Of a stretch of DNA of 64,000 nt, positions 822-60,502 are shown piece after piece. The position numbers were made by a program, and so were the translations under genes. Below the pieces are notes generated by a model. That model did no database searches and was not told the DNA's origin. It saw nothing but the letters and a program-made list of their open reading frames with translations. Source of the stretch: an uncultured Planctomycetia bacterium (lineage in GTDB: Bacteria; Omnitrophota; Gorgyraeia; 1-14-0-20-64-10); the NCBI GenBank assembly GCA_964597545.1, contig CAZQXN010000004.1, positions 6,683 to 70,682 of the forward strand, in the 5' to 3' direction. Each line of letters opens with the position of its first letter. Within the stretch, counting starts at the first letter, position 1.

Positions 822-1738
822 GTGTTTTCCTGGATAAGACCACTCGGGTTATCGTTCAGGGGATTACCGGCAGGGCCGGTTCGTTCCACGCGACCCAGAT
901 GCTGGAGTATGGCACGCAGATTGTTGGGGGTGTTACCCCAGGGCGAGGCGGACAGCAGTGGGGGGAGCTTCCGATCTTTGATACCGTTGAGGAGGCGGTG
1001 GAAAAAACAGGCGCCACCGCCACCGCCATCTTTGTCCCTGCCCCACTGGGAGCCGATGCCATCTTAGAGGCCGTAGAGTCCAAGGTGAATCTGATTGTTG
1101 TCATCACTGAAGGTATCCCGGCACAAGAGATGCTTAAGGTCAAAGCGGTGCTTAAAAACAAAAGGGGTCAGACCCCCAAAGAGAAGGGGTCAGACCCTGT
1201 GATCATCGGTCCCAACGGCCCTGGGATCATTACCCCGGGCGAGGCTAAAATCGGCATCATGCCCGGCTACATCCACCGCCCAGGTTCCATCGGGGTGGTA
1301 TCTCGCTCCGGCACCTTAACCTATGAGGCAGTTTGGCAGTTGACCCAACTGGAGTTAGGACAATCCACCTGTATTGGCGTTGGTGGGGATACCCTCCCTG
1401 GAACCGGCTTTGTTGAGATTTTGGAATGTTTTGAGGCTGATCCTGCCACGCGCGCCATAGTTCTGATCGGTGAGATCGGAGGCTCTGCCGAAGAAGAGGC
1501 CGCTCGTTTCATCCGCGCCCGTGTTCATAAGCCGGTCGTTGCTTTTGTAGCCGGAGCTACCGCACCCGCGGAAAAGCGCATGGGTCATGCCGGCGCGGTG
1601 ATTGCCCAGGGGAAGGGGACCCATGCCTCCAAGATTGAGGCTCTAACTCAAGCCGGTGTCACCGTGGCCCAGAACCCTGCCCTCATTGGAAAGACCCTTG
1701 CCGAATGCCTTGCCGGACACAAGAAGCATGTAGGATGA
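818..1738 (+). CDS. sucD: Succinyl-CoA synthetase alpha subunit, with an unusual in-frame insert at about 1141-1200
   Basis: [45 protein letters not shown]...[41 protein letters not shown] is a canonical SucD. Translationally coupled to sucC. Confidence 0.9.
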
Positions 1739-8450: not shown

Positions 8451-9809
8451 CTATTGGGTTTGGCCGGTAAAGGTAAAGTCCTTCAACAGCACAGCCGGGG
8501 TGACCACCGAGGTAGCGCCTGAGATCGGATCGGCCACCAGACGAACCTCCTCGGAAAGGGCCTGGATTTTTGAGAAGGCCTGAAGAATCGACTGCGTAAA
8601 CCGTAAATTCTTCACAGCGCTCACCACCCTACCTCTCTCCACCAGAAAGGTTCCGTCTCGAGTCAACCCCGTCATCAAGGCCTGCTGTGTGTCGAGCAGC
8701 CCGTTGACGTAGTGGAAGCGAGTAATCCATAGCCCTCGATCCATACATTGAAGCATTTGGTGATGCGGTACCTTACCCGGGGCCACACAGAGATGGGCGG
8801 CCCCGGGCCCTTCGGCGGCTTCGTCAAAGGCAGGGGCATGCCCGGTGGAGTGGCGGTGGTACAGCTTGGCGTATTGGCTGTCAAAGACCACCCCGCGGGC
8901 CCGTCCCCCCTCAACCAGCGGTACGCGCCTCTTCGGGATCCCTTCAAAATCAAAGGGAGTTGCCAGCCCGCGGGTATCGGTACCGTCATCCCAGATCGAC
9001 AGCGTTGGATGCATGAGTTGCTCTCCCATGCGGCCTGCAAAACAGCTGGTTCGCTCATGCAGCTGTTTGGCCCCAAAGGCGATGGTGGAAAGCCACTCCA
9101 CCAATTCCGCCACCGCCTCGGGCTCAAGCAGGACATTGTACTTCCCCAACCGGATGGTTTTGGAGTTCCTGTTATGCCTGCAGTGGTCCAGGGCTTGCTG
9201 TAGAAGGGACTGTGGGTTGAGGGTCTTGGGGTCGCGAACAGCCCCTGCTGCAAAGCCAGAAGCCTTGCCTTGGGTGGGAATCAATCTTAAGCCCGTGGTT
9301 GAGAAGGGCTGATACTGCGCAAGCCCCCCAGAGCCTACCACGCAGAACTCCTCCTCTCCTGTTGCAAAGGAGCCGGCCAAGTCCATTCCAGCGCGGTGGG
9401 TTTGTTGGGAGAGCTCTCGGATCATTCGGATGTTCTTGGTCAGGTTCTGGCGGTGATCCACTGGGAAGTGCGTCTTGATGGGGGCGGGTTTTTCGCGGGG
9501 TGGATGCGCGCTGAAGGCCGGTGCAGTCTGCTTGCTGGGGAGCCGTGCAATTTGAAGCGCAGAGGCAATCGCGCAAGTGAGTGCACGGTCGCTCAGTGAA
9601 GATGTGGTGGCAACCCCGGCGCGCCCCTCTGCCGCTACCTTGACCCAGACGGTGACATCCTCCTCATGGAAATTTTGATGAATGGCACCCCCGGCAAAGC
9701 GCAGGGTAGTCTTGGCGCCCCGCTGTACGGTTAAAAGGGTCTCATCGGCCGGTGATCTCTTTGCCGCCTCCTTAAGTACAGTCACCATGCGGGATTTACC
9801 CAGGAGCAT
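8451..9809 (-). CDS. pmbA: TldE/PmbA-family metalloprotease-associated protein
   Basis: 452-aa protein with TldD/PmbA-family layout. Start overlaps the stop of the tldD-like gene upstream on the minus strand. Confidence 0.75.
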   Translation of the reverse strand: MLLGKSRMVTVLKEAAKRSPADETLLTVQRGAKTTLRFAGGAIHQNFHEEDVTVWVKVAAEGRAGVATTSSLSDRALTCAIASALQIARLPSKQTAPAFSAHPPREKPAPIKTHFPVDHRQNLTKNIRMIRELSQQTHRAGMDLAGSFATGEEEFCVVGSGGLAQYQPFSTTGLRLIPTQGKASGFAAGAVRDPKTLNPQSLLQQALDHCRHNRNSKTIRLGKYNVLLEPEAVAELVEWLSTIAFGAKQLHERTSCFAGRMGEQLMHPTLSIWDDGTDTRGLATPFDFEGIPKRRVPLVEGGRARGVVFDSQYAKLYHRHSTGHAPAFDEAAEGPGAAHLCVAPGKVPHHQMLQCMDRGLWITRFHYVNGLLDTQQALMTGLTRDGTFLVERGRVVSAVKNLRFTQSILQAFSKIQALSEEVRLVADPISGATSVVTPAVLLKDFTFTGQTQ

Positions 9810-11266
9810 CAGCCTTTCCTCCCGACCAAGACCTTCTCAAAGCGGGCTGGGGAGGTTCCGTGTCCCACGTGCATGGACTGAACCGGTTCCCCCTTGCCGC
9901 AATTGGGCACCCCAAAGAGCTGCCACTCTCCTTTGCCGGTGACCGCAGAGCAGGAACGCCAAAATTCCGGCGTGATTCCGGTATAGACCGGGTTTTTAAG
10001 TATCCGGCCGATGCGGCCCTGCCGAATCTCCCAGGCGATCTCGGTTCCGAACTGAAAGTTGAGGCGGCGGTCATCGATCGACCAACTTTTATTAGTGGCC
10101 ATGAGGATTCCCCGCTGGGTGTCGCGGATCAACTGAGCCAATGTTCCGGTACCGGGTTCGAGGTTCACGTTGGTCATCCGGATGATCGGAATGGCATTCC
10201 AGCCGTCGGCACGCATCGCCCCAGACGACATCCGGCCGATCTGGGGTGCGCTCTCCCGGGAGCTTAAGTATCCTACGAATTTTCCCTCTCGGATGATCGG
10301 CACCCGCTGGGCCTCAACCCCCTCGTCGTCATAACCGAAGGTGCCGCACCCCTGTGGTGTAGTGGCATCGGCCGTGATGTTGACAAGCTTAGAGCCGTAC
10401 CGGAACCTACCAAGCTTCTCCGGCGTCAAAAAGCTACCTCCTGCAAAGGAGAGTTCCAATCCCAATGCCCGGTCCAGCTCAACCGGGTGTCCGCACGACT
10501 CGTGAAGCTGAAGAATCAGCTGGTCCGGCATGAGGATGAGGGAGGTGGTTTGATGCGGGCAGGCCTTGGCTCGCAGCAGGGCCACGGCCTCTTTGCGGAT
10601 TCGAGGGGCATGCCCGACAAAATCAAGAGCTTTGACATGCTCATAGCCGGCTTGAGCCAGAGCGGCTGCGTTGGCTGAGGGGTAGGAGCGACGCTGCACC
10701 TCATGGTCCAGGACAGCGGTGGCTTCCAACTGTCCGCCGGATTCTGTGATCTCCTGCTCAATCCAGGAGCCCTCGGTGGAGCAGAAGAACTTCTCTGTTC
10801 GGTAGAACTCCAAAGCTGCCTTGGCGGTCTTAATGCTGGGGTGGTCTTTTAAAAGCCGGGATGCCCAAAGGAGATAATCCAGCTTTTTGGAAAGTTCCAC
10901 CTCAAAGGGGTCCACCTCCAAGGGGGTTCGGTAGTGAGCGCGGACCGGTTCTACCGGGTGGAGCTTGACCTTGGTGTGGGATTCCTGGGCAACGGCCCGG
11001 GCCATTGTGAGGGCGGTTTCAACGGTGTGAGTCAATCCCACTCGATCCAATCGGCTGGAGGCAGCATGCCCCCATGCGCCCCGGTACAGCGCCCGAATGG
11101 AGATCCCTTCAGAGGTGGCGTGGCTGGCCTGCTTGACCTGAAGATTCTGGACCACCAGATCTTCTTCGGTTTGCTTGACCCAGCGCAGGTCTGCATAATC
11201 TACCCCGCGCCGCTTGAGGGCCTTGACCGTGTCGGTGGCGATATTTTTGATCTTGGGGGAAACCAT
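9809..11266 (-). CDS. tldD: TldD-family zinc metalloprotease
   Basis: HESCGHPVE (HExxxH) motif within a TldD-like sequence. Proposed start at the internal Met (MVSPKIKNIATDTVKALKRRGVDYADLRW), giving 486 aa. The ORF-track start at 11497 is probably an upstream run-on. Confidence 0.75.
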   Translation of the reverse strand: MVSPKIKNIATDTVKALKRRGVDYADLRWVKQTEEDLVVQNLQVKQASHATSEGISIRALYRGAWGHAASSRLDRVGLTHTVETALTMARAVAQESHTKVKLHPVEPVRAHYRTPLEVDPFEVELSKKLDYLLWASRLLKDHPSIKTAKAALEFYRTEKFFCSTEGSWIEQEITESGGQLEATAVLDHEVQRRSYPSANAAALAQAGYEHVKALDFVGHAPRIRKEAVALLRAKACPHQTTSLILMPDQLILQLHESCGHPVELDRALGLELSFAGGSFLTPEKLGRFRYGSKLVNITADATTPQGCGTFGYDDEGVEAQRVPIIREGKFVGYLSSRESAPQIGRMSSGAMRADGWNAIPIIRMTNVNLEPGTGTLAQLIRDTQRGILMATNKSWSIDDRRLNFQFGTEIAWEIRQGRIGRILKNPVYTGITPEFWRSCSAVTGKGEWQLFGVPNCGKGEPVQSMHVGHGTSPARFEKVLVGRKG

Positions 11267-11538
11267 GATTGCACTTACCCTACGGTGTTTGATCTCCCCT
11301 GTCAACCTACACCCACCAGCCGAAGGGCAAGCTGGAGACGGGGCCCTTGTGACGGGGTGGCCCGAACGCGCACCGTTGGAAGGCCGTGCGGGCATGGTGT
11401 CCCTGGCGCTGCATCTTATCGGGGACGAGCACGGCCGAACACCGGAGCGAGGATTGCCTCGCTGGGGCAATCCGAGCGGTGCGCGGCGGACCAACACGGC
11501 GCAGGGGTGTCTCCAGCTTGCACGGGAGGTCTGCTATA

Positions 11539-12960
11539 ATGCGGCTCATGAGGTATACACCGGTTCGTGCCATGGAGGCGGTCAATGCTGCCTTCCTCAG
11601 GATTCCCAGGGCGAAGATCCTCAAGATTCTCTCCAGGAAAGAGCCCCTCTTTCTTAAGGAAGGCATGGCCATGCTCTCGGATGAAGGCAAGCGCAAGCTC
11701 ATCGATGTTCAGCTGCGCCCCTGGGTGTTCAGCAGGGCCCAATACCGTTTCTTCTACCAGGCCTGCAGGCTGCTGCAGAGCGCACTCCACCGAGTGATGG
11801 CTCTTTATGTCACCGCTCCCCGCGTCCAGCAGATCGTGCCTCTTGATCGCAGGGAGCATGATTGGATGATGGCCGTCAATGCCGGAGGCATCCAAAAACC
11901 CCAGGCGATCATTGACCGGTTGGATGCCACCGCCACCTTTACCCCCTCGGACTGGCGGGAGAATTTCTTCTTCTTAGAGCCCAACTGCGTTGGCATTGGC
12001 GGCGTCCATTACATTCCTGCGACCTGCCTGTTGACCAACAAGTGGGTCCTTCCTACACTCAAGAAGCATCTTCCTGACCTCACCTTTCAGTACCCGGATG
12101 ACATTCGGGAGCTGATGCTCAAACTCTTTACCCGGCATGCCAAGGCGATCGGCAGGAGACTGCGGCGCATCGCCTTACTGGAGGATCGATCGGCCGAAGG
12201 AGGAACCGACGAGTTTGGGGTGCTGGCTCAGTATTACAAAGGCCAGGGACTGCCGGCTGTGGTGGCTGATCCCCGTGAGATTGTAATTCGTAAAGGAGAG
12301 GTGAGCGTCAAGGGCAAGCCGGTGGACATCATTTACCGTGATACGGAGCTCAGAGAAATCATCCCCTTGGTGGCCCAGGGGACGAAACGCACCCCCTGCG
12401 GCATCCGAGAAGCCTTTTTGCGCAACCAAGTGGTCTCTTCCATGGCAGGGGAGTTTGACCACAAATCGGTTTGGGAGCTCTTCACCAATCCGGAGTTTGA
12501 CCGTTACTTCACCCTGCGCCAGCGCAGGCTCTTCCAAAAGCATCTGCTGTGGACCCGTTTGATTTGGGAACGCAAGACAACCTCTCCGGCCGGCAAGGCG
12601 GTAGATCTGGCTCGTTATACCCGGCGCAACCGGGAATCCCTCATGATCAAGCCGAATCGAGCCTTTGGTGGGGAGGGGGTGGTCTTTGGGCACCAGTGCG
12701 CCCAGGCGGTCTGGGAGCGCGTGTTGGCCAAGGCCTTAAAGCGTCCCGGCTCCCATGTGGTTCAGCGCGCCGAGGCGGTCCGGGCAGAACTGTTTCCCTC
12801 GGCAGACAAGCGGGGTAGGGTACGGCTGGAGTCGTATCATGCTGTGACCGGCTTTGCTGCCACCCAAGATGGGATGGCGGTTCTGGGCCGCTCCTCGAGA
12901 GAGCGGGTGGTCAACGTCTCCCGGCGCGGAGGCTTAATCGCCATCTGGCAGCTCGGTTAA
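11539..12960 (+). CDS. ATP-grasp-like amidoligase (glutathionylspermidine-synthase / circularly-permuted ATP-grasp-like), putative
   Basis: LMIKPNRAFGGEGVVFG resembles the GspS / ATP-grasp nucleotide-binding motif. Start chosen at the ATG just after a TATAAT-like box; the ORF-track start at 11386 overlaps tldD. Confidence 0.45.
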   Translation: MRLMRYTPVRAMEAVNAAFLRIPRAKILKILSRKEPLFLKEGMAMLSDEGKRKLIDVQLRPWVFSRAQYRFFYQACRLLQSALHRVMALYVTAPRVQQIVPLDRREHDWMMAVNAGGIQKPQAIIDRLDATATFTPSDWRENFFFLEPNCVGIGGVHYIPATCLLTNKWVLPTLKKHLPDLTFQYPDDIRELMLKLFTRHAKAIGRRLRRIALLEDRSAEGGTDEFGVLAQYYKGQGLPAVVADPREIVIRKGEVSVKGKPVDIIYRDTELREIIPLVAQGTKRTPCGIREAFLRNQVVSSMAGEFDHKSVWELFTNPEFDRYFTLRQRRLFQKHLLWTRLIWERKTTSPAGKAVDLARYTRRNRESLMIKPNRAFGGEGVVFGHQCAQAVWERVLAKALKRPGSHVVQRAEAVRAELFPSADKRGRVRLESYHAVTGFAATQDGMAVLGRSSRERVVNVSRRGGLIAIWQLG

Positions 12961-13008
12961 TCGTTAACCTGAGGACTGCCTCTGGTTTTGCCTGCCTGCA
13001 AGAAAAGA

Positions 13009-16000
13009 TTATGCTCCTGTTGCCAGTTCCTCCAGCCCCACCATGAAGGCGGGCAATTCTGTGGCAAGGAGGTGTTGGTCAACCCCCATGCGTTCAAAAA
13101 TATACTGAATCATTGCCGCTGCGTTTGCTGCTGCCGCCCGGACGACTGTTCCTGTAATGCCGGCATACTCCGCCAAGCTGAACAACAGGTCCGTCTCCTC
13201 CAGGCCGCCCAGCGCCCGAAAAGAGCGGGCATCTAAGGCAACGAGCTGGGTAACGACTCCTGCCGGATCAGTTCCATCATGAATCAGAGCTCTATCCTCA
13301 AGCCCGGCAAAAGCTCTTACAACCGGATCTTCCGCCAGATCTCCTCCAATCACAAAGAAGGAGTTGGGGTGGGTAGCAGAGCGATGGAGTCGCTCCAGTC
13401 GCCCCTCAATAGAGACCGGCCAAGAAACTGCTTCCTCCAGGCCTGTAGCGGGTCCACCAATGAGGTATGGCTCAAGATTCATCTGCAAGCCTGCATCTTT
13501 CTTGGGAAGGTTTTCCCATACCTTAACAATCTGATCTGCGGGAATCTCTAAAACGCGTTCTAGAATCGATAAATGGACCTCTGGAGTATCTTCCCTGGCG
13601 CCAAAGAGCCTGAGGGTGTCCACCTTGTTGCGATTGGAAAGGTATCGGAAGGGGATGACGTTTTCATCTGGCCGAACATTCACAGCGGCAACCCGAGCAT
13701 AGGGAAAATCCACGTATTGGTGTACGGTTTCTGGGGGATGTCCTGTAAAATCAAATTCAGCCAGGACGGCGTCAGATCGGTTACCTCTTGTTGCATAGCT
13801 CATCGCATGCTCTGGGATCTGCGTGATATTAGCATCTGAGCCAAACGGGGTTTCGTAATAGGGCAGCCCTCCATGCTCCAGGAGCTTCCATTTAAAGCTC
13901 TCCCAATTAGCTCCGTGCAACCAAACGTGACCGATCCACTGCGATCTTTCATCTTCGGTTGTCTCTCTAAAATATGCTTGTCCGCTTTCATTGGTGTCCA
14001 TCGTGACTTCGAAGCGCACAATGGCTTCATTTGCGCCCTGATAATTTAGCTCGCCGCCACTTCCATCCGCGGATTGATACGAGAGGTTTTGCTTTCCCCC
14101 TCCCTGCGCTGCAAGACGAGTTGCGCTTTTGATGGATCGAAATAGCTCCAGTCGGGTTGCCATGATCTTTGACCGCTCTCGCCATTCAATGCCCTCATCA
14201 GTTGTTACAAATTTGATGTCGCCAGCATCAACCTTTGCCAAAATAGCCTTTGTGAGCATGATGGCTGCCCAGGGACTAACGATGTCATCTTCGTTAATTG
14301 AGATTTTCGCCTTATCTCTAAATACCAGACGATGCGATTGGTCAGACCATCGGATATCGGGAAATACCGGCACATAATGAGGCTCGTGCATTGAAATGAT
14401 CAGCGGAGACTGCGCCTGAATAGACCCGGCTAACCCCTCGACTTTCTGTATGGTTCGTAGGTCTAATTCCTCCAAGCCTGTAGCGGGCTTCAGATCCAGT
14501 AACTCCACTATCTGCCTGGCTGAGCGCAGATAAGCATCAAACGCACTTTTGGATGAATAAGTAGAAGGGGTCGTTCTCATCTCTGCAGCGGACAGCTCTC
14601 CGGTTACAAACTGAGCAAGCCTATGGGCATCTGCCAGATGCAACCGTCTTGCGCCGCTGTCTGTCCCGAGATGCAGATCGTAATACCTCACAGCATCGGA
14701 GAACCGTGTCGGGTTGGGCATCGCTCCAAACCAAACTGCCAGCAAAAGCTGAACAACATGTTTGGGCTCCTTGAAACTAAAGCTATCTGAGGCTGGAAGC
14801 TCTTTCTCTAATACTTGGCGGGCAGCGGAGAAGGAGAGCTTGCCAGCCAAGAACTCTGGCAAGATATGCTGCGCTTCCTGGCGAAGTTTTAACAAGGTGT
14901 GCCAGGGGACGACAGTTTGATCGATAACATCCGGTGTATGAATGGGGTGTGCTTTGCCCGGGACCCACCCTTTGTAATCCAGATCAACGTCGAAAAGCAG
15001 ATCGGTCACTCCCTGCGGAATCTGTTCGGTATGCGCACGGTTGGCCGCCTCTTCGAACATCGCAGGAGGGATCCCCTGGAGATCCAGAACAATCAAGGTA
15101 TCTGTTCCGACACCAAGCAAAATCTGCTCCCCTCGTTTCGACATCACCTCCAGAATTGCCAGGATGGGGTGGGCTTCTGGGATCTTTGAGTCGAAGAAGT
15201 CGGTTTCCAAATAGACAATGTCGGGCCATCCCCAGCGGTAATGGATGTGCTCCAACAACAACTGGGCAGGTGCGCCAGAAAGCATATACGGAATTGCTTG
15301 AATCCACTTTTCTAACCCTTCGGGGGTTTGAATCGGGTGAAACCGTTCAAGCTCATGGATAGTGATCCGTAGATTTGATTTCTTATCTTCAATGATTTTG
15401 GGGTCAGCCGAGGGGGCATTGGGATCAGGCAAGTCAAGATAAGGTTTTTGCTGCCTTCGGTAATGGCTCGACTTATCAAACAAAAGCTGGCGAACACCTT
15501 GAGGAACTCGGGAAAAATGGGCCCGTTTTTTCATCTCCTCGAAGACCACCCGATCATCCGGGCCGGCCTCGATTCCTTCGCTATCCACAACCACCAACTC
15601 ACCGGAGCCGACTGCTACCACAACCTCTTTGGGCCGCTGGGCTACCTGATCTAGCGCATGGGAGATGCTCAATGCTGAGGCAGCCCTGTCTCTCCAGAAG
15701 CTCTCTGCGACAAGATAGGCAACCACTTCGTTTGGCCACTGATCATCAATGTATTGCAAAAGTTGTTGGGCCGCCCGCTCAGAAAGAATTTCCCACTTGG
15801 CCGATAAAGCCGAAAAAGCTTCTGGTTCTCGCAGAAGATTCATTATTGGCACATTGTTCAAAAACGGCGGCTGCTCCTCTATCCCGGCAGCAGCTGTGGG
15901 ACTCAATGCTTCCTTGAGTTGGAGGGTGACAGGGGACCCCTCTTCCATCCCTGCATTTAAGGGTCGCAACGCCCAGGCAGCGGGGGTGGGCAAAGCTAGG

Positions 16001-16053
16001 CCAGCGCTTAGCAGAAACATTAGGATTCTGTAGATGACCGGCTGCCTTTTCAT
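13009..16053 (-). CDS. Large secreted protein of unknown function (1015 aa from proposed start), with an internal duplication and recurrent A-x-G-L-E-E motifs
   Basis: - Signal peptide MKRQPVIYRILMFLLSAGLALPTPAAWA.
- Two internal roughly 100-aa repeats (...WP..V.YL....F...........LVV.D..GI......RAH....PQGV..LLFD).
- No recognisable enzymatic motif.
- ORF opens at 16113. Confidence 0.6.
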   Translation of the reverse strand: MKRQPVIYRILMFLLSAGLALPTPAAWALRPLNAGMEEGSPVTLQLKEALSPTAAAGIEEQPPFLNNVPIMNLLREPEAFSALSAKWEILSERAAQQLLQYIDDQWPNEVVAYLVAESFWRDRAASALSISHALDQVAQRPKEVVVAVGSGELVVVDSEGIEAGPDDRVVFEEMKKRAHFSRVPQGVRQLLFDKSSHYRRQQKPYLDLPDPNAPSADPKIIEDKKSNLRITIHELERFHPIQTPEGLEKWIQAIPYMLSGAPAQLLLEHIHYRWGWPDIVYLETDFFDSKIPEAHPILAILEVMSKRGEQILLGVGTDTLIVLDLQGIPPAMFEEAANRAHTEQIPQGVTDLLFDVDLDYKGWVPGKAHPIHTPDVIDQTVVPWHTLLKLRQEAQHILPEFLAGKLSFSAARQVLEKELPASDSFSFKEPKHVVQLLLAVWFGAMPNPTRFSDAVRYYDLHLGTDSGARRLHLADAHRLAQFVTGELSAAEMRTTPSTYSSKSAFDAYLRSARQIVELLDLKPATGLEELDLRTIQKVEGLAGSIQAQSPLIISMHEPHYVPVFPDIRWSDQSHRLVFRDKAKISINEDDIVSPWAAIMLTKAILAKVDAGDIKFVTTDEGIEWRERSKIMATRLELFRSIKSATRLAAQGGGKQNLSYQSADGSGGELNYQGANEAIVRFEVTMDTNESGQAYFRETTEDERSQWIGHVWLHGANWESFKWKLLEHGGLPYYETPFGSDANITQIPEHAMSYATRGNRSDAVLAEFDFTGHPPETVHQYVDFPYARVAAVNVRPDENVIPFRYLSNRNKVDTLRLFGAREDTPEVHLSILERVLEIPADQIVKVWENLPKKDAGLQMNLEPYLIGGPATGLEEAVSWPVSIEGRLERLHRSATHPNSFFVIGGDLAEDPVVRAFAGLEDRALIHDGTDPAGVVTQLVALDARSFRALGGLEETDLLFSLAEYAGITGTVVRAAAANAAAMIQYIFERMGVDQHLLATELPAFMVGLEELATGA

Positions 16054-16270
16054 AAGGTCCGTATTCATACTACAAGTATGGCACATTGGAGAAAAAATAG
16101 ACAAGTTCAGCAATCTAAAATTGGTACGATTAACTCATTGGGGGAGGGTGGTGGATTCAAGCGACGGTCGGAAAGCAGCCAAGACAGGTTCAGGGACCAA
16201 AGAGCAGTTTGTTAACCTTGCATAGAAAACTGGTTGACATTTACTCCTCCCGTAAGGGATAACGGTACTC

Positions 16271-16362
16271 TCAAGCTTTTCCGAGAATGTCATCCTCGCC
16301 GAAGCGAGGATCCTCGATCGAGTCGAGGATAGCGTTCGATTCCCGCTTGCGCGGGAATGACA
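16271..16362. repeat. Cluster of three consecutive perfect hairpins nested in an outer TGTCAT/ATGACA inverted repeat, in the bioB 5' region
   Basis: TCCTCGCcgaaGCGAGGA, TCCTCGAtcgagTCGAGGA and TTCCCGCttgcGCGGGAA, flanked by gaaTGTCATcc ... ggaATGACAcc. Confidence 0.5.
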
Positions 16363-16382
16363 CCCAATAAAGGGATTCTTGC

Positions 16383-17363
16383 ATGAGGTACCAGGTCCAA
16401 ACCATTGCCGAGCGGATCCTTGAGGGCAAAGGTTCTATTGCCTTTGACGAGGCAGAGGGGCTCATTGCCCTGGAGGCTTGGCCTGAGATCCTGGAGCTGG
16501 CGGCATGGGCCTTGAGGATCAGGGAGAAGTTCACCGGCCAGCAAGCCGACACTTGCTCCCTGATCAACGCCAAATCCGGCAGATGCCCTGAGGACTGCGC
16601 ATTTTGCAGTCAGTCGGGCCGCGCCGATACCGATATCCCCACCTATCCGCTGGTGGACCCCGAGCAGATTGTCCAGCGCGCAAAAGAGGCCAAGGCCTTT
16701 GGGGCCCAGCGCTTCTGCATCGTCACCGCCACCGGTTCTGTCTCGGACAAAGACCTTCCGGTCTATTGCGAGGCGATCCGGCGCTTAAAAGAAGAGGTGG
16801 GTATTGTACCGGAATGTTCCCTCGGGTTCTTGACAGAAGAGCAGCTCCTGCGCCTCAAAGCGGCCGGCATGGTCCGATACAACCACAATTTAGAGACCGC
16901 CCAGAGCCATTTCCCTAAGATCTGCACCACCCACACCTACCAGCAGAGGCGCGAGATTATCCAGATGCTCAAGCGCCATGGTGTGGAGGCCTGCTGCGGC
17001 GGCATCTTGGGGCTAGGAGAGTCCAGGCGGCAGAGGTTGGAGCTGGCCTTTGCCTTGGCCGAGCTGGAGGTGGAGTGCGCTCCGATCAATATCTTAAACT
17101 CCCGCGCCGGGACACCATTGGAGAGCAGCGCTCCACCTGCCCCTCAGGAGATCATCAAAACCATCGCCATCTTCCGTTTTATTCTGCCTCGGACCCAGAT
17201 CAAACTGGCAGGAGGGCGGGAGGCGGCCTTAAGAGAGTTTCAAACCATGGCCTTGCTGGCAGGGGCCAACGCCTTGATCATCGGAGGGTATCTCACCACC
17301 CAGGGCCGCGAGCCTTACGAGGATCTTCAGATGCTTGAGGAGGCGGGATTTACCGTCTCATGA
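16383..17363 (+). CDS. bioB: Biotin synthase (radical SAM)
   Basis: Cys triad CPEDCAFC, plus FCIVTATG...GGILGLGES, typical of BioB. Confidence 0.9.
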   Translation: MRYQVQTIAERILEGKGSIAFDEAEGLIALEAWPEILELAAWALRIREKFTGQQADTCSLINAKSGRCPEDCAFCSQSGRADTDIPTYPLVDPEQIVQRAKEAKAFGAQRFCIVTATGSVSDKDLPVYCEAIRRLKEEVGIVPECSLGFLTEEQLLRLKAAGMVRYNHNLETAQSHFPKICTTHTYQQRREIIQMLKRHGVEACCGGILGLGESRRQRLELAFALAELEVECAPINILNSRAGTPLESSAPPAPQEIIKTIAIFRFILPRTQIKLAGGREAALREFQTMALLAGANALIIGGYLTTQGREPYEDLQMLEEAGFTVS

Positions 17364-18085
17364 TCTCCCTGGCCGAGAAGCGGATATTGGTGATGGGGGC
17401 GACCGGTACAATCGGCCGGACCATCCTCGAGGAGGCCAAAGGGTACGGGGCATGGGTAGCTGGGTCCTACTGGCGCAGCGCAGATAAAGCTCGAGAGCTC
17501 CAGTCACAGGGTGTTTGGATGGTTCAGGCCGATTTGACTGACCGCTCCCAGGCACGCGCCTGTGTTCAACAGGTTTTGGCAGAGGCCGGGCACTTGGATG
17601 GTTTGGTCTACGCTGCCGGCAACGCAGCCGACCACACCCTGACAAAATTAAGCGAAGCGGATTGGGATCAAGTCTTCAAGCTGCACCTGGGTGGTTTGGT
17701 GGCTTGCGCTCAAGAGGTGCTGCCCAGCATGCGGCGCCGGGGCCGCGGCAAGATCATCGCACTCGGTTCCATGGCAGGCCAGACTGGTCGGATAGGGCAA
17801 GCCAATTACAGCGCTGCCAAGGGGGCGACAGTAGGCTTTATCAAGACCTTGGCCCGGGAGGCCGGCCGCTTCGGGGTGAGCGCCAATGTGATCTGTCCGG
17901 GCTTCGTTGAATCTGAGATGACTCGATCTGCCCCTCCCGCTGCCTGGGATCAGGCCCGAGCCGATTCGGTCCTAGGGACACTTTCCAGCGCTCAAGTGGT
18001 TGCCTCTTTTTCCGGTTGGCTCCTCTCAGATCTGTGTCAGGGTGTGACCGGCCAGGTCTTTCATCTCGACAGCCGAATCTTATAG
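17360..18085 (+). CDS. Short-chain dehydrogenase/reductase, FabG-like 3-oxoacyl-ACP reductase family
   Basis: Rossmann motif VMGATGTIGRTI and catalytic YSAAK (YxxxK); SDR fold. Coupled to bioB (ATGA). Confidence 0.75.
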   Translation: MISLAEKRILVMGATGTIGRTILEEAKGYGAWVAGSYWRSADKARELQSQGVWMVQADLTDRSQARACVQQVLAEAGHLDGLVYAAGNAADHTLTKLSEADWDQVFKLHLGGLVACAQEVLPSMRRRGRGKIIALGSMAGQTGRIGQANYSAAKGATVGFIKTLAREAGRFGVSANVICPGFVESEMTRSAPPAAWDQARADSVLGTLSSAQVVASFSGWLLSDLCQGVTGQVFHLDSRIL

Positions 18086-18087
18086 AG

Positions 18088-19284
18088 ATGATCTCTTTCG
18101 ATTCTCTCCGCACCGAGCTGGATGACCTCACCGCGCAAGGCCTTTATCGCAGTCCCCGAAAGGCAGAAGAGATCTGCGGCGGCCGCATTCGCGTGGGATC
18201 CAAGTGGTTGGTCCATCTGGCTTCCAATAATTACTTGGGGCTTACCGAACACCCCCGCGTTAAAGCTGCTGCTGCTGAGGCGGTAACGCGCTTCGGGACC
18301 GGGGCCGGCTCAGCACGGCTCATCGGCGGCAATCTCCCTTTGCATGAATCCCTGGAGGAGGGACTTGCCCGTTTTAAGCAGTCAGAGGCGGCGCTGGTTT
18401 TCTCAACCGGCTACATGGCTAATCTGGGGGCGGTGACCGCACTCGTGGGTTCAGGGGATCTGGTCATTGGAGATCGTTTCAACCATGCCAGCCTCATAGA
18501 TGCCTGCCGCCTCTCAAAAGCTACATTCCGAGTTTTTCCCCATCGGGATACAGCGTGCCTTGCCGCTGCCCTAAAACGTCATCGCGGTCAGCACCGACGG
18601 GCCCTGATCGTCACCGAAGGGGTCTTTTCGATGGATGGGGATTTGGCCCCTCTGCCGGAGATTGTAGAGGCGGCCCGGCAGTATGATGCATGGGTGCTGG
18701 TGGATGATGCCCATGGCACCGGTGTTTTGGGGGAGGGGGGCAGGGGGACTGTGTCCCATTTTGGGTTAAGCGGCATCTTGCAGATGGGGACCCTTTCGAA
18801 GGCTTTGGGTTCTTTGGGCGGATATGTTGCCGGCCCCAGCGCTGTCATTGAGCTTTTAAGGAACAAGGCACGTTCCTTTATCTACACCACTGCCCTGCCT
18901 CCGGCTTCGGCTGCCGCGGCTCAAGAGGCATTGCGCGTGATTGAGGCCGAGCCGATTTGGATTGAGCGGCTTTGGAAGAACACAGAACAGATGCGCGCCG
19001 GACTCACTGCCCTGGAGATTCCCCTGGTGGCACAGGAAAGCCCAATCCTTCCGGTACGCGTCGGGGATGCGCAGGAGGCGATGCGCCTGGCAGAAGAACT
19101 CCTGGCCGCCGGGGTTTATGCTCCAGGCATTCGCCCTCCCACGGTGCCGGCCGGATCGGCCTGCATCCGCATCTCGATGAGTGCTGTCCATACCCCTCGG
19201 GACATTGCCGCAGCCTTAAAGGCCTTTCAGGGGGTTTTTGTGGGTGAGGCCCATGCTGTCCAACAGAAAGTCTCCCAAAGATAA
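18088..19284 (+). CDS. bioF: 8-amino-7-oxononanoate synthase (KAPA synthase), PLP-dependent
   Basis: LASNNYLGLTEHPRVKAAA...FSTGYMANLGAVTALV...SKALGSLGGYVAG, class-II aminotransferase / BioF pattern. ATG at 18088 follows the SDR stop; the ORF-track start at 18016 overlaps. Confidence 0.85.
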   Translation: MISFDSLRTELDDLTAQGLYRSPRKAEEICGGRIRVGSKWLVHLASNNYLGLTEHPRVKAAAAEAVTRFGTGAGSARLIGGNLPLHESLEEGLARFKQSEAALVFSTGYMANLGAVTALVGSGDLVIGDRFNHASLIDACRLSKATFRVFPHRDTACLAAALKRHRGQHRRALIVTEGVFSMDGDLAPLPEIVEAARQYDAWVLVDDAHGTGVLGEGGRGTVSHFGLSGILQMGTLSKALGSLGGYVAGPSAVIELLRNKARSFIYTTALPPASAAAAQEALRVIEAEPIWIERLWKNTEQMRAGLTALEIPLVAQESPILPVRVGDAQEAMRLAEELLAAGVYAPGIRPPTVPAGSACIRISMSAVHTPRDIAAALKAFQGVFVGEAHAVQQKVSQR

Positions 19285-19295
19285 GGAGCATTGTA

Positions 19296-20723
19296 ATGGT
19301 TTCTTCTGATTTACAGACTCGTTACCTCAAGGCACAATTGGCCTTTCTGGATGGCCAGATGCTTATGGACCCCAGCGTCAATGATCAAGTCGGATTTGAT
19401 TTTCAAGGTCTAAGGCGCAGCTACTTTGATGACCCAAAGCACGGGCAGTCCAAGTTTGTCGCGCACTCAGGGCGTGTCTGGATCTATGACGTGGCCCTAT
19501 CGATCTACGCAGACCTTAAATCCAAACGGTTCCAGCAGGCTGTCCATCAGGCTGATCGGGTGGTCCAGCTGGCGCAGAGGGAAGAGGAGCGAGGTTTCCA
19601 GGGGCTGTGGCACTTTTCCTACAACACGAAAGAGGACAGCTTCATCGATCCGCGTGGGCCCACCGGCGCCAATGCCTGGTGCTTGAATGCCCTCTACGCC
19701 TGCGCGCTGGAACGCGGGGATAGGGCGCTGTTGGCTTGGCTGAACCAGAAGGTAGAGAGCTACCTCTTTGGCGAGCAGGTGATCAACCGCAAAGATCCAC
19801 GCCACGGCCTCATTCGATCTGGGCGCTACAACGCCGATGACCTCGCTCGGGAAGATTCCATGGGATATGACGTGTACAGAGGAGACCTGAATCATTCCTA
19901 CGAACACGTTATTTTGGAACATTGCGCCGATGCTGCCGGAACATTCCGGCTGGCCTTCCGGGCCAACCGGCGGTTGGATCCAAAGAACAAACCGTTTCTC
20001 GAGATCCTCATCGAGCGTCATGACTGGCTCATTCAGGGGATGCGGCGCTGTTTCTGGCAGGGGGATCATTTTGTTTCTGCCCTGGATGGCCAAGGGCAAT
20101 TGTACCGGGGAAGAGACGGTCAGCCCAGCGTTGCCGTGGACAACAACACCTGGTCAGCCCACATCTTTGTGCCCTATGACTTAGAGCTAGCCCGTTCGGC
20201 AGCTCGCTACGTGGAGGATCGGTTCATCACCCAGGTCCCTCCGGCTATGCTGGAAGATCTTCCATCTGACTCCACGCAGGCAGGTTCCGTGCAGGAGGGG
20301 CTGGAGGGGTTGTATTACTTCCCGGACACCTTTGCCGATCCCTTTGTCCAGATTCCTGACCAGAGACGTGAAAAAGTAGAAAAACTTCTCCACCCGGAGG
20401 CTGCCTTGGGGTTTGTTCTGTTCCTCCTCGGTTTGGCCGATCACCTCTCGGGTTCGGAGCAAGAACGCTTGCGCCAACGAGCACTGAAGCTCTACGAGGA
20501 TACCGCCAATCTCCAGGGACTCTACGGTGCGCACGCCGCCCCTTACGCAAGCGTCAACATTCCTCCGATCTTCTCCACCCTCCACTCTGTGACGACGGCT
20601 GCATGCGGAGTGATTACCACTAGGATCCTGCAGGGGGCACCCAGCGATGATTTCATCGGGGTGATGCCGCCCAAGGAGATGACAGTTGCAGGTCAAGCGC
20701 CTGCCCGCTCCATTGATGACTAG
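19296..20723 (+). CDS. Hypothetical protein within the bio operon (475 aa), unknown function
   Basis: Intact ORF between bioF and bioD-bioA. No diagnostic motif recognised; composition is alpha-helical and enzyme-like. Confidence 0.5.
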   Translation: MVSSDLQTRYLKAQLAFLDGQMLMDPSVNDQVGFDFQGLRRSYFDDPKHGQSKFVAHSGRVWIYDVALSIYADLKSKRFQQAVHQADRVVQLAQREEERGFQGLWHFSYNTKEDSFIDPRGPTGANAWCLNALYACALERGDRALLAWLNQKVESYLFGEQVINRKDPRHGLIRSGRYNADDLAREDSMGYDVYRGDLNHSYEHVILEHCADAAGTFRLAFRANRRLDPKNKPFLEILIERHDWLIQGMRRCFWQGDHFVSALDGQGQLYRGRDGQPSVAVDNNTWSAHIFVPYDLELARSAARYVEDRFITQVPPAMLEDLPSDSTQAGSVQEGLEGLYYFPDTFADPFVQIPDQRREKVEKLLHPEAALGFVLFLLGLADHLSGSEQERLRQRALKLYEDTANLQGLYGAHAAPYASVNIPPIFSTLHSVTTAACGVITTRILQGAPSDDFIGVMPPKEMTVAGQAPARSIDD

Positions 20724-22827
20724 AGGTCTTTTTGTTACCGGTACCGGAACAGAGGTAGGAAAAACCGTTGTAACGGCGGCCCTGGCCCATGCCTTCCTTA
20801 GACAGGGAGTGAATGTTGGGGTTGTCAAGCCTATAGCGACCGGCTGCCAGCGGCGCGGCGGCAAACTTATCTCATCGGATGCCGAGAAGCTTCTCCGGGC
20901 AAGCGGCGCTGGGGACCCCACGGAATGGGTCTGTCCCTATCGCTTCAGGCCTCCGGTTGCTCCTTCAGTTGCGGCAGGCAAACAGGGCATCTCCTTCTCT
21001 CGAATCGATCAGGCCATGGAGCGCTTGAGCAGCCGCCATGATCTTCTTTTGGTTGAGGGGATCGGCGGGCTTCTGGTGCCCCTGGATGCCCGCCGCACCG
21101 TTGTGGATCTGGCAGCGCACCTGAAGCTTCCCCTGCTTGTGGTGGCCCATGCGGGGCTAGGGACCCTGAATCATACCCTCCTTACCCTTGAGGCGGCTCG
21201 ATCCAGGAACCTTGAAGTAGCTGGCATTGTCTTGAATCAGCGCAGTCCCACTCCCTCTCTGGCAGAGCAGACCAATCCAGCGGTATTGCGCAAATTGGGT
21301 CAGGTGCCGGTTCTAGGGGTAATCCCTCACCTGAGATTCCCCTCCCCAGAGCAGGTAGCCGGCTACCTTAAGGCCAAAAAGATCTTTCAGAAAATCGGTA
21401 CCAGGTACCAAACCCAAACCCCTTGTACAAAAGGGTCAGACCCTTTCGTACAGCGCCTACGGAGCGGTCACGTACGAAAAGTTCAGACCCTGAGCCATCG
21501 GTACCTGGTACCAAAGGCCGTACCAAAGGCTCAAGCGAAGCGTTTGATCCAGAGCGACCGCAAGCGGCTGTGGCACCCCTTTACCCAGATGCAGGATTGG
21601 GAAAAGGAGGAGTCGCTGATCATCCGCTCTGCCCGCGGGGTGTGGCTTACCGACATCCACGGCCGTCGCTATCTCGATGGTGTCTCCTCCCTCTGGGTCA
21701 ATCTCCACGGCCACCGCCATCCGGCCCTGGACCAGGCCTTAAAACAGCAGGTTGATCGAGTGGCCCACTCCACCCTTTTGGGGGCAGCCAACATTCCCTC
21801 CATCGAGCTGGCAGAGGAGATCTTGCGGGTGGCCCCCAAGAATCTCACACGCGTTTTCTACTCCGACAGCGGCTCTACTGCTGTTGAAATTGCACTCAAG
21901 ATGGCTTTTCAGTACTGGCAGCAAAACGGCCGCCCGCGCCGCCGTCGCTTTGTCCACTTTGTCGATGCCTACCATGGGGATACGGTGGGCTCTGTCTCGG
22001 TCGGCGGGATCGACCTGTTTCATCAGGTGTACAAGCCCCTGCTCTTTAAGGGGTTCAAGGTTCCCTTGAACAAGATTAAGCCCTTTGAGGAGACCCTGCG
22101 CAAGCACCACCCCGAGATTGCCGGTGTCGTGGTAGAGCCCTTGGTGCAAGGGGCGGCTGGGATGGCGACCCAACCCAAAGGGTGGCTCAAGCAGGTAGAA
22201 AGGCTCTGCCGCCGCTACGGACTGCTGCTGATTGCTGATGAGGTGGCAGTAGGTTTCGGGAGAACCGGCACGATGTTTGCCTGCGAGCAGGAGAAGGTGC
22301 GTCCAGATCTGCTCTGTTTGGCCAAGGGGTTAAGCGGCGGCTACCTTCCTCTGGCGGCGACCCTGGCCTCTGAGCGAATTTACAAAGGGTTTTTGGGCTC
22401 CTATGCCTCCAAGCGGACCTTTTTTCATGGGCACAGCTACACCGGAAATCCCTTGGCCTGCGCGGTTGCTTTAGAGAGCCTGCGTCTTTTCCGCCGCGAG
22501 AAGGTGCTGCAGAGACTTAAGCCTAAAATCCGGCTCTTTACACAGGAGCTCAAACGCTTCTGGGAACTTCCCCATGTAGGAGATGTGCGCCAGCAGGGGC
22601 TGATGGCTGGCATCGAGCTAACCCAAGATAAAGCAAAAGGCACCCCTTATCCCTGGGAAACCAAGATGGGGATTCAAGTCTGCAGTGCGCTCAGAGCCGA
22701 GGGCATTCTCTTGAGACCCCTGGGCAACGTGGTGGTGCTCATGCCCCCTCTGGTCATCTCCCGAGAGGAGCTTAACTTTCTTTGCCGCAAGACCTATACT
22801 GCTGTGGATCGAGTGACTGGCATTTGA
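20716..22827 (+). CDS. bioDA: Dethiobiotin synthetase fused in-frame to adenosylmethionine-8-amino-7-oxononanoate aminotransferase (BioD-BioA), linker encoded by a MITE-like repeat
   Basis: - N-terminal GTGTEVGKTVVTAAL P-loop (BioD).
- C-terminal WHPFTQMQ...YSDSGSTAVEIALKMA class-III aminotransferase (BioA).
- Single ORF with no stop between them.
- A possible internal TTG at 21544 could also start bioA independently. Confidence 0.8.
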   Translation: MTRGLFVTGTGTEVGKTVVTAALAHAFLRQGVNVGVVKPIATGCQRRGGKLISSDAEKLLRASGAGDPTEWVCPYRFRPPVAPSVAAGKQGISFSRIDQAMERLSSRHDLLLVEGIGGLLVPLDARRTVVDLAAHLKLPLLVVAHAGLGTLNHTLLTLEAARSRNLEVAGIVLNQRSPTPSLAEQTNPAVLRKLGQVPVLGVIPHLRFPSPEQVAGYLKAKKIFQKIGTRYQTQTPCTKGSDPFVQRLRSGHVRKVQTLSHRYLVPKAVPKAQAKRLIQSDRKRLWHPFTQMQDWEKEESLIIRSARGVWLTDIHGRRYLDGVSSLWVNLHGHRHPALDQALKQQVDRVAHSTLLGAANIPSIELAEEILRVAPKNLTRVFYSDSGSTAVEIALKMAFQYWQQNGRPRRRRFVHFVDAYHGDTVGSVSVGGIDLFHQVYKPLLFKGFKVPLNKIKPFEETLRKHHPEIAGVVVEPLVQGAAGMATQPKGWLKQVERLCRRYGLLLIADEVAVGFGRTGTMFACEQEKVRPDLLCLAKGLSGGYLPLAATLASERIYKGFLGSYASKRTFFHGHSYTGNPLACAVALESLRLFRREKVLQRLKPKIRLFTQELKRFWELPHVGDVRQQGLMAGIELTQDKAKGTPYPWETKMGIQVCSALRAEGILLRPLGNVVVLMPPLVISREELNFLCRKTYTAVDRVTGI
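21393..21517. mobile_element. MITE/REP-like hairpin element with terminal inverted repeats AATCGGTACCAGGTACCAAACCC / CCTTTGGTACCAGGTACCGATG, inserted in-frame in the bioD-bioA linker
   Basis: - Terminal GGTACCnGGTACC units are in inverted orientation.
- Internal GGGTCAGACCCTTTCGTAC / GTACGAAAAGTTCAGACCC inverted pair.
- The same 19-mer recurs at 57034-57052. Confidence 0.6.
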
Positions 22828-22903
22828 GAGCGACTCTCCTTTGAAGGAGGCCAAGTCAAAGGATCAGTTTTGTGGTAAGGTGAGGCGGTAAGATTAATCT
22901 CAA

Positions 22904-23308
22904 GTGTCTACGATTCGTTTTCCGTATAAACGCTACCGGGATCAAGCGGCACCCGTGATTCCCATCAGGGTGCTGGCTAACGGGCGCTGGCGCCGGGTTG
23001 TGGCCTACGTGGATTCAGGGGCAGCCTACAGTGTGCTGACCGTACGAGAGGCCAAGCGCCTGGGGCTGCTCAAGATCAAGGCCAGGCGGGTGGCGGTCAC
23101 CACCAGCGGAGGCCGCGCCAACAAGATCTCGCTTCACCGGCTGTGGGCGCGCCTAGGCAAGAAGCGCCTCTCAATTACCTTCGGAGTTCCTCGGGATTTT
23201 GATGTCGACTTTAACCTCCTTGGACGCAGGGACCTCTTTGGACGATTCGAAGTCTGCTTCAATGACGCCCAAAGCGTCCTTACCCTCATCGAACACCGAA
23301 AACAGTAA
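22904..23308 (+). CDS. Retropepsin-like (clan AA) aspartic protease domain protein
   Basis: YVDSGAAYSVL contains the D-S-G-A aspartyl protease signature. 134 aa single domain. Confidence 0.65.
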   Translation: MSTIRFPYKRYRDQAAPVIPIRVLANGRWRRVVAYVDSGAAYSVLTVREAKRLGLLKIKARRVAVTTSGGRANKISLHRLWARLGKKRLSITFGVPRDFDVDFNLLGRRDLFGRFEVCFNDAQSVLTLIEHRKQ

Positions 23309-57081: not shown

Positions 57082-57110
57082 TTGACATCGTTAACAGGGC
57101 GGTGTACCTT
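57082..57110 (+). promoter_or_regulatory. Putative promoter (TTGACA - 17 nt - TACCTT) preceded by an ATATGCAACAT motif
   Basis: TTGACA at 57082-57087. The motif TTGATAAATATGCAACAT resembles the RAYT promoter region. Confidence 0.3.
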
Positions 57111-57119
57111 AGTGCCCCC

Positions 57120-60424: not shown

Positions 60425-60502
60425 TTGTACACTAGCTTGATTCTTGGCGGAAGAAGATATGGTGGAATCTCAAAGGGATTGAAGGAAAAGGGGGTTGCGG
60501 GA

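Follow-up and report, generated by a model that had tools for sequence, protein, structure and literature searches.

Repeated GLEE peptides at module boundaries in a rare family of large, putatively exported bacterial proteins

Introduction

Modular exported proteins with shared sorting elements are already known in bacteria. The MARTX toxins of Vibrio and its relatives are single large exported proteins with enzyme-like modules whose linkers are processing sites; they leave the cell by type I secretion without a Sec signal peptide, and contain glycine-rich RTX repeats and an internal cysteine protease (Peptidase_C80). The signals of sortases, exosortases and rhombosortases (LPXTG, PEP-CTERM, GlyGly-CTERM) are read by a dedicated enzyme; each protein has one such signal, at its C-terminus, and a transmembrane helix and a basic tail come after it. 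In this study, we analyzed a 64,000-nucleotide stretch of contig CAZQXN010000004.1 (hereafter the window), in which one gene, p1 (13009-16053, minus strand), encodes a large protein with a predicted Sec-type signal peptide and repeated [small]-G-L-E-E motifs (GLEE motifs), and a second gene, p2, encodes its paralogue in architecture. We found that proteins of this family, which is itself undescribed, consist of a signal peptide, the residues L-R-[PQT], two GLEE motifs in the next ~10-60 residues and motif-bounded cargo, and usually end in an alpha/beta C-terminal domain with three GLEE motifs and the tail L-x-x-x-Ala-COOH. Between close relatives, cargo is replaced, inserted or deleted at or near the motif boundaries, while the leader and the C-terminal domain are kept.

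Like MARTX toxins, these proteins are strain-variable mosaics of modules in a conserved frame, as seen when p2 is compared with its counterpart in a syntenic relative and p1 with the public protein P0003. The likeness is one of behaviour only: RTX repeats and the cysteine protease domain were not detected in p1 or p2 using Pfam, and both proteins have predicted Sec-type signal peptides. Type IX cargo proteins of Bacteroidota resemble p1 in having a Sec signal peptide, variable cargo and a conserved C-terminal domain of ~100-150 residues, which in a type IX genome occurs on many proteins that are unrelated in other respects. The type IX domain (Por secretion tail type, represented by Pfam and TIGRFAM models) is an immunoglobulin-like beta-sandwich (PMC11285876), whereas the p1 domain is modelled as a four-strand alpha/beta domain and has no Pfam or NCBIfam match at E values up to 1. 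Furthermore, type IX cargo, which belongs to another bacterial group, has neither an internal punctuation motif nor a leader after the signal peptide. In polymorphic toxins, as in p1, a short peptide (VENN of CdiA, PxxxxDPxGL of Rhs) marks the exchangeable part and its DNA offers homology, but the exchangeable part of p1 is internal, with several junctions, no immunity gene and no known toxin or trafficking domain. Lacking the defining features of MARTX toxins, type IX cargo and polymorphic toxins, p1 is therefore a member of none of these groups. With sortase-type signals it shares a very short motif found in many exported proteins of one lineage; unlike them, GLEE occurs four to nine times per protein, the C-terminus is amphipathic and ends in Ala, and no NCBIfam sorting-signal model matches.

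Omnitrophota are poorly known bacteria which are thought to live on other microbes. Their giant proteins are large, exported and multi-domain, and are suspected to be cleaved into several products at points stated to be unknown; their lengths run to tens of thousands of residues, and they contain peptidase domains of the C39 or S8 type as well as numerous transmembrane segments (bioRxiv 10.1101/2023.11.21.568195). The bacterial group is probably the same as that of p1, whereas p1 has neither the size nor the transmembrane segments nor the C39 or S8 domains of these proteins, and the GLEE motif is unmentioned in that paper.

Results

Architecture of p1

The open reading frame (ORF) and coordinates given by the original prediction, which had been made from the sequence of the window, were borne out, and the product of 1015 residues claimed there turned out to be 1014 residues plus the stop codon. 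The frame is open upstream of the ATG as far as a TTG at 16113, and the 1014-residue product is an exact match to public protein P0001, an unnamed singleton cluster encoded on a 92,222-bp NCBI contig. Promoter and terminator scans gave background level only. The parts of p1, all on the minus strand, are as follows.

13009-16053, minus strand: p1 gene, 1014 aa and stop codon (13009-13011), from the ORF list
15970-16053, minus strand: predicted signal peptide, aa 1-28, MKRQPVIYRILMFLLSAGLALPTPAAWA, read from the sequence
15868-15969, minus strand: leader after the signal peptide, aa 29-62, from alignments to p2, P0003 and the slot protein of the syntenic relative
15457-15789, minus strand: repeat 1 of a tandem duplication, aa 89-199, within cargo module A (pairwise BLASTP)
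14971-15285, minus strand: repeat 2 of the tandem duplication, aa 257-361 (pairwise BLASTP)
14467-14487, minus strand: junction motif 1, P-A-T-G-L-E-E, aa 523-529, 5' copy of a 21-nt direct repeat
13453-14466, minus strand: cargo module B, aa 530-867, orphan, lowest GC of the p1 gene (0.49)
13432-13452, minus strand: junction motif 2, P-A-T-G-L-E-E, aa 868-874, 3' copy of the 21-nt direct repeat
13012-13431, minus strand: conserved C-terminal domain, aa 875-1014, alpha/beta fold

The N-terminus, MKRQ-VIYRILMFLLSAGLAL-PTPAAWA/LRP, has the n, h and c regions and the A-x-A of a Sec-type signal peptide as read from the sequence, with a predicted signal peptidase I site directly after A-W-A (slash). 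The leader then continues as ...AAWA/LRPLNAGMEE...AAAGIEE, that is, LRP, NAGMEE (aa 33-38), a spacer and AAGIEE (aa 55-60). The start of p1 is 35% identical to that of p2 over 80 columns (E 3e-4 in the full-length comparison, 7e-8 when the ends alone are compared), and the p1 leader is 50% identical to that of P0003 over aa 2-59. The signal-peptide module previously proposed to be common to p1 and the 1884-residue p2 is thus real, and the shared module outruns the signal peptide to include LRP, GLEE, spacer and GLEE.

Based on motif positions, the protein was divided into leader (aa 1-62), module A (aa 63-522), first junction (aa 523-529), module B (aa 530-867), second junction (aa 868-874) and C-terminal domain (aa 875-1014). 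It was split in this way because motifs bracket domains in the relatives and because the cargo differs from that of P0003. The C-terminal domain contains the motifs AGLED (13294-13305), GGLEE (13195-13206) and VGLEE (13027-13038). The protein ends in ...LATGA-COOH, which fits the L-x-x-x-Ala pattern, and its C-terminus, ...ELPAFMVGLEELATGA, has neither a transmembrane stretch nor a basic tail. The internal duplication of roughly 100 residues claimed earlier was confirmed as two repeats of ~110 residues with 33% identity and 56% positives (E 3e-17), and RAH....PQGV..LLFD closes both copies, just as had been described. A hidden Markov model (HMM) built from the two copies found no further copy among all sequences fetched.

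Enrichment of the GLEE motif

Repeated A-x-G-L-E-E-type motifs had been noticed in p1 and p2, and their frequency proved to be far above that expected from composition. The pattern G[LIMQ]E[ED] occurs seven times in p1 against 0.15 expected, and none of 20,000 composition-preserving shuffles had seven copies (maximum, three). p2 has eight copies against 0.34 expected, and the 35 other ORFs of the window (15,340 aa) have two in all. Using a wider pattern in the six frames of the 64 kb, 16 of the 21 matches fell in p1, p2 or the p2-derived fragment at 62974-63624.

In 116 motif instances from 25 family proteins, collected with a search pattern which fixes the Gly and the first Glu, the second Glu is present in 97% and Leu in 88%. 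The preceding position is occupied by A (56%), T (13%), G (10%), S (9%) or V (9%), and there is next to no conservation outside the motif core. Ala is the last residue in 23 of the 25 proteins, typically as L-x-x-x-A.

Relatives with the same leader and C-terminal domain

No model matched p1 or p2 in scans against Pfam, NCBIfam, PHROGs and PADLOC; homology searches assigned no known family to p1, and Pfam and NCBIfam gave nothing for the whole protein at E up to 1. A word-index protein search with p1 returned p1 only, and look-ups of contigs by exact sequence gave no record for p1 or for BioB of the window. Exhaustive phmmer comparison with 1.84 billion representative proteins yielded only five relatives, solely via the last ~145 residues of p1, and no homologue of the cargo modules. 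The matched stretch starts at aa 867-870 of p1 (motif GPATGLEE) for P0003, P0004 and P0005, and deeper in the domain for the fragment P0006 (aa 892) and for P0007 (aa 906).

The four full-length relatives (P0003, P0004, P0005, and P0007) repeat the plan of p1. They start with a signal peptide, [AG]/LR[PQT] and two GLEE motifs, followed by variable sequence, and a further GLEE opens the conserved C-terminal domain, within which there are 3-4 more, the last of them ~8 residues from the protein end. A profile search with the C-terminal domain found 11 proteins, ten of them new and mostly fragments on short metagenome contigs. The leaders of p1 and ten other proteins can be aligned as signal peptide, [AG]/LR[PQT], 0-8 residues, GLEE, 5-40 residues and GLEE.

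One genome per species was scanned with a DNA pattern that has three motifs at the spacing of the C-terminal domain; it hit 112 stretches, four of which (L063, L088, L101, and L114) were confirmed by HMM. The confirmed members come from only two metagenome-assembled genomes (MAGs), 'Candidatus Omnitrophota bacterium NC_groundwater_94' and 'uncultured Planctomycetia ERP125453_co1_275'. More GLEE-rich proteins, with leaders or with other C-terminal domains, are present in the latter MAG and its sister MAG, and GLEE-rich proteins were also found in a second Omnitrophota-labelled MAG (L076). No relative was returned by a genome-contig scan with full-length p1, and a metagenome scan with the C-terminal domains of p1 and P0003 returned the P0003 contig alone. 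Literature searches for the GLEE motif gave nothing relevant. From these results, p1 is a member of an undescribed and rare family which, going by the MAG labels (Omnitrophota or Planctomycetia), is lineage-restricted as far as sampled, in agreement with the original prediction of a lineage-specific family of large exported proteins; what the prediction had not foreseen is the conserved C-terminal domain with its Ala-ending tail, and the position of the motif at module boundaries, where the sequences of close relatives part and their cargo is replaced.

Cargo modules

The cargo between leader and C-terminal domain is wholly different among the relatives, and includes a GcvT aminomethyltransferase, methyltransferases, a metallophosphatase, HEAT repeats, a PfkB-like piece and kinase-like domains, as well as the orphan cargo of p1. 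Three of the relatives show an enzyme domain lying between two motifs.

P0003, aa 104-493: complete aminomethyltransferase (GCV_T and GCV_T_C, E 6e-67), motifs at 89 and 528
P0005, aa 259-349: FtsJ-like methyltransferase, motifs at 62 and 418
L106 protein, aa 1093-1318: metallophosphatase (Metallophos), motifs at 1030 and 1385

Around the motif at aa 363 of the L101 protein, a methyltransferase stands on the N-terminal side and HEAT repeats on the C-terminal side. The C-terminal domains of p1 and P0003 are 51% identical (p1 aa 870-1011), whereas their middles (430-810 aa) are unrelated, with 810 orphan residues in p1 as against GcvT in P0003. The gene for P0003 (L001 1630-3642) places a GcvT-type enzyme between a GLEE leader with signal peptide and a p1-type C-terminal domain. 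Thus, an enzyme of apparently cytoplasmic type is equipped with signals for export.

The cargo modules of the window (13453-15867 and 51581-56554) have a GC content at third codon positions (GC3) of 0.48-0.62, most of them 0.48-0.57, as compared to 0.68 +/- 0.04 for housekeeping genes. The overall GC of leader and C-terminal domain is 0.57-0.59, near the genome value of 0.587, and the GC3 of the p1 C-terminal domain is low (0.54).

In two Planctomycetia-labelled MAGs (L106 63-7898 and L011 4177-7245), a GLEE protein ending ...AYR[VA]GLEE.TLP...FA adjoins a gene with a leucyl-tRNA synthetase-like N-terminal sequence, and this arrangement may be a second conserved slot.

Cargo replacement in a syntenic relative

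The window was compared with a syntenic 75-kb JGI contig, Ga0118719_1000606 (loci L002 and L006). The flanks are 83-91% identical at the nucleotide level, and fourteen flanking proteins are 77-97% identical. The features concerned are the following.

12973-16159, no strand: hypervariable p1 slot, between an ATP-grasp-like gene and bioB (blastn against L002)
51347-57001, plus strand: p2, 1884 aa, leader present, G-[LQ]-E-E motifs eight in number, C-terminal domain of a separate type
p2 aa 1-78: mosaic block 1, 74% identical to aa 1-76 of the relative's counterpart
p2 aa 936-1213: mosaic block 2, 57% identical to aa 455-727 of the counterpart
p2 aa 1737-1884: mosaic block 3, 74% identical to aa 729-876 of the counterpart
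62974-63624, plus strand: chimeric ORF, in which a ComM/Mg-chelatase fragment runs into a copied p2-type C-terminal domain that retains PAGLEEL

Within 8452-22797, the p1 slot is the only stretch without nucleotide similarity to L002 by blastn, and the sequence on either side of it is 83-89% identical in nucleotides and 77-95% in protein. In its place, the relative encodes an unrelated protein of 630 residues which has only the leader in common with p1 (51% identity over 39 aa) and contains GLEE motifs of its own.

The counterpart of p2 in the relative (L006:18330-20960) is a protein of 876 residues and a mosaic of p2; outside the three blocks, the two proteins are unrelated or the sequence is absent. 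Block 1 ends on the ATGQEE motif of p2 (aa 72-77), the middle block starts at AGQEE (aa 935-939) and ends at AGLEE (aa 1209-1213), and the last block opens at SSGQEE of the relative (aa 722-727), where p2 has no exact motif. At the nucleotide level, 5' homology is detectable up to aa 67 of p2 and the middle block ends at aa 1214. The breakpoints in p2 thus lie on motifs or within about seven residues of them.

In the chimeric ORF, the first ~80 residues come from the ComM/Mg-chelatase gene at 57689-59230, and the last ~140 are 71-81% identical to the C-terminal domain of p2. This ORF is probably a rearrangement remnant. With it, the p2-type C-terminal domain is present in a third copy, a chimeric one, which shows that modules are copied about.

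Residues ~480-930 of p2 form four tandem repeats of ~110 residues, 25-35% identical, each with W[VI][PS]GFI. Two ORF6N-domain genes of the window (57102-57680 and ~59300-59741, plus strand) flank the ComM gene, and in the relative an ORF6N gene stands directly after the p2 counterpart (L006 21080 onward).

DNA sequence at the junctions

The two junctions of p1 form a 21-nt direct repeat, CCCGCTACAGGC[T/C]TGGAGGAA, found by repeat finding at 14467-14487 and 13432-13452; the copies, one on each side of module B, differ at a single position (20 of 21 nt identical). Among the p2 motifs, those at aa 38 and 1765 are identical at 18 of 18 nt, including the Leu codon CTA (2% usage), those at aa 383 and 937 at 18 of 19 nt, and those at aa 74 and 228 at 15 of 15 nt. 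Leu and Glu codons in the motifs match genome usage, and only the Gly codon is skewed to GGC (11/15, p = 0.0014).

We read these data as selection on the peptide, plus local copying or conversion of junction DNA. That selection acts mainly on the protein is indicated by the Leu and Glu codons, which follow genome usage. Copies of junction DNA may offer the in-frame microhomology through which modules are deleted, inserted or exchanged.

Structure models of p1

The C-terminal domain of p1 was modelled with AlphaFold2 from a 15-sequence alignment, with a mean predicted local distance difference test score (pLDDT) of 85.7 and a predicted template modelling score (pTM) of 0.77. In the model, helices alternate with four strands, a long helix closes the domain, and the protein ends in an amphipathic helix whose last residue is Ala. 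The junction motif ahead of the domain falls in a low-confidence segment, which suggests that this segment is probably flexible. In the alignment, the best conserved residues are the Glu-Glu of the second internal motif. A profile of the domain gave only marginal matches to designed alpha/beta proteins among PDB sequences. The AlphaFold2 model of full-length p1 has a mean pLDDT of 47, with confidence only in the C-terminal domain and in helices at residues ~380-440, and modules A and B have no fold assignment because confidence in these regions is low.

Genomic surroundings

The window is ordinary chromosome. It contains genes for succinyl-CoA ligase, TldD/PmbA, biotin synthesis and menaquinone synthesis by the futalosine route, as well as for HemA, FeoB, PabB, PurH, FolC, an M48 peptidase and ComM. 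Family members elsewhere likewise adjoin unrelated housekeeping genes. A functional link of p1 with TldD/PmbA, the ATP-grasp protein or the M48 peptidase was considered and dropped, as these are conserved flanks and the neighbours of other members differ.

Three tandem paralogues of 657, 643 and 695 residues (1705-7690, plus strand) are 43-53% mutually identical; a signal peptide is evident in the third, and Pfam scans of the first and third gave no match. L002 contains 647- and 638-residue relatives of these proteins, with nucleotide similarity strongest in the C-terminal parts. Another gene (60425-61645, plus strand) encodes a probable secreted protein consisting mostly of EGPAF/EGPMM-type proline-glycine repeats, with only a weak extensin-like Pfam match, and the long antisense ORFs over it are probably artefacts of the repeat. 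A 3.7-kb insertion in the relative (L002 16338-20094), absent from the corresponding site of the window (22797-22904), codes for a 638-residue secreted repeat protein, a DUF4382-like protein and an intimin/invasin-type beta-barrel (IAT_beta). PurH of the window has homologues with 60-66% identity, and the gene order PabB-aminotransferase-PurH is also found on JACQCH01 (GCA_016201735.1).

Discussion

The interpretation that we favour, with about even confidence, is that p1 belongs to a lineage-restricted, Sec-exported and fast-diversifying modular family, whose GLEE junctions are read by shared processing or sorting machinery and whose cargo cassettes are exchanged. The biochemical role that we infer for the family would be as follows. 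The protein would pass the inner membrane via Sec, and conserved cell machinery would read the GLEE junctions as well as the leader and the Ala tail. An enzyme, most likely an endoprotease or a sorting enzyme, would then release or position the modules, making p1 an exported polyprotein, and the repeated junction sequence would serve as in-frame microhomology for the exchange of cargo cassettes. The family would comprise exported proteins that diversify fast, probably surface proteins or effectors directed at other cells. Such a role in interactions with other cells would fit both the diversification pattern and proposals made for Omnitrophota (bioRxiv 10.1101/2023.11.21.568195). It is a more tentative idea, and one that we rather doubt, that a new pathway dedicated to export and processing takes GLEE, the LRP leader and the Ala tail as its signal, much as sortase signals or the type IX C-terminal domain act, and cuts or attaches polyproteins at each junction, the junction doubling as an in-frame recombination point.

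Several points weigh against a family united by junctions that are read. The three internal motifs of the p1 C-terminal domain occupy non-equivalent places in the model, namely a helix end, a strand-to-helix turn and the inside of the last helix, and this placement in a folded domain would suit a role in structure or ligand binding no less than one in recognition. Homology between the p1-type and p2-type C-terminal domains is unsupported (hhalign probability 31% over 18 columns), and our first impression that the C-termini of p1 and p2 can be aligned was given up as not significant by BLAST; with domain types that are not demonstrably homologous, the family may be united by leader and motif only. 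No partner gene recurs in the neighbourhoods of family members, and no protease, sortase or receptor was identified. The mosaic analysis covers one pair of close genomes, the placing of the window DNA in the family's lineage follows the labels of the MAGs with family members, and signal-peptide cleavage is predicted by reading the sequence.

One alternative is that GLEE is a structural linker only, that is, an inherited helix-start or linker element that nothing reads, in fast-evolving periplasmic or surface proteins that act full length. In the model, GGLEE lies at a turn from strand to helix, the helix itself starting with LEE, and the last motif lies inside a helix; residues beyond the five-residue core are barely conserved, and no partner gene was found. 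We nevertheless regard this explanation as unlikely. A helix cap needs no invariant Glu-Glu with 88% Leu over 116 sites in unalignable sequence, and the motif occupies non-equivalent structural positions. Moreover, a pair of copies invariably stands at a set position behind the signal peptide, and other proteins of the same genome are almost without the motif (2 in 15,340 aa). Alternatively, the signal might reside in the DNA, with the ~15-21-nt junction as the conserved element at which cassettes are shuffled by recombination, and the peptide motif as a by-product. The variation of Leu and Glu codons across motifs like that in the rest of the genome, and the alternation of Leu, Met, Ile and Gln at one motif position, argue against this, as do the distant members, which differ in genome composition and retain the peptide rather than the DNA, and the absence of a recombinase or reverse transcriptase nearby. 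Thus, we consider a purely DNA-level role improbable, despite the near-identical junction DNA within a gene with its rare codon, the 21-nt repeat flanking module B of p1, the mosaic breakpoints at motifs and the Gly codon bias to GGC.

The nature of the cargo raises another alternative, in which leader and C-terminal domain send ordinary enzymes, not effectors, to a membrane-bounded or extracellular compartment or to vesicles of the cell itself. Much of the cargo is indeed made up of typical cytoplasmic enzymes (the aminomethyltransferase, methyltransferases, the PfkB-like piece and the metallophosphatase), and the genes are placed among housekeeping genes. However, wholesale replacement is unexpected for housekeeping enzymes when neighbouring proteins are ~90% identical, and the p1 cargo is without any homologue in the exhaustive search, which makes compartment targeting quite improbable. 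Still further from our data is the idea that p1 belongs to contact-dependent or Rhs-like polymorphic toxin systems, with GLEE acting as VENN or PxxxxDPxGL does there. A short conserved peptide does edge a variable region exchanged between close relatives. However, this region lies in the middle of the protein and it is the C-terminus that is conserved, domains of toxin, pre-toxin, filamentous or RHS type were not detected, and p1 is followed not by a small immunity-like gene but by a conserved ATP-grasp gene on the other strand. We regard this possibility as very improbable.

In summary, we have described in the GLEE proteins a family for which there is no Pfam, NCBIfam, PHROGs or PADLOC model, no solved structure recognizable by sequence and no mention in the literature searched. 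The family is tractable in that a five-residue motif predicts module boundaries, leader and tail should identify every member in a genome, and there is direct evidence of cargo exchange at the motif between close relatives. If GLEE, leader and tail do mark a dedicated pathway, small and probably host-dependent bacteria could fit exchangeable enzyme cargo into a shared frame for delivery, and the GLEE motifs would for the first time allow processing sites to be predicted in the large exported proteins of this lineage. If the lineage assignment is right, these proteins would provide a defined set of candidate interaction proteins, together with a concrete hypothesis for the processing of large exported proteins.

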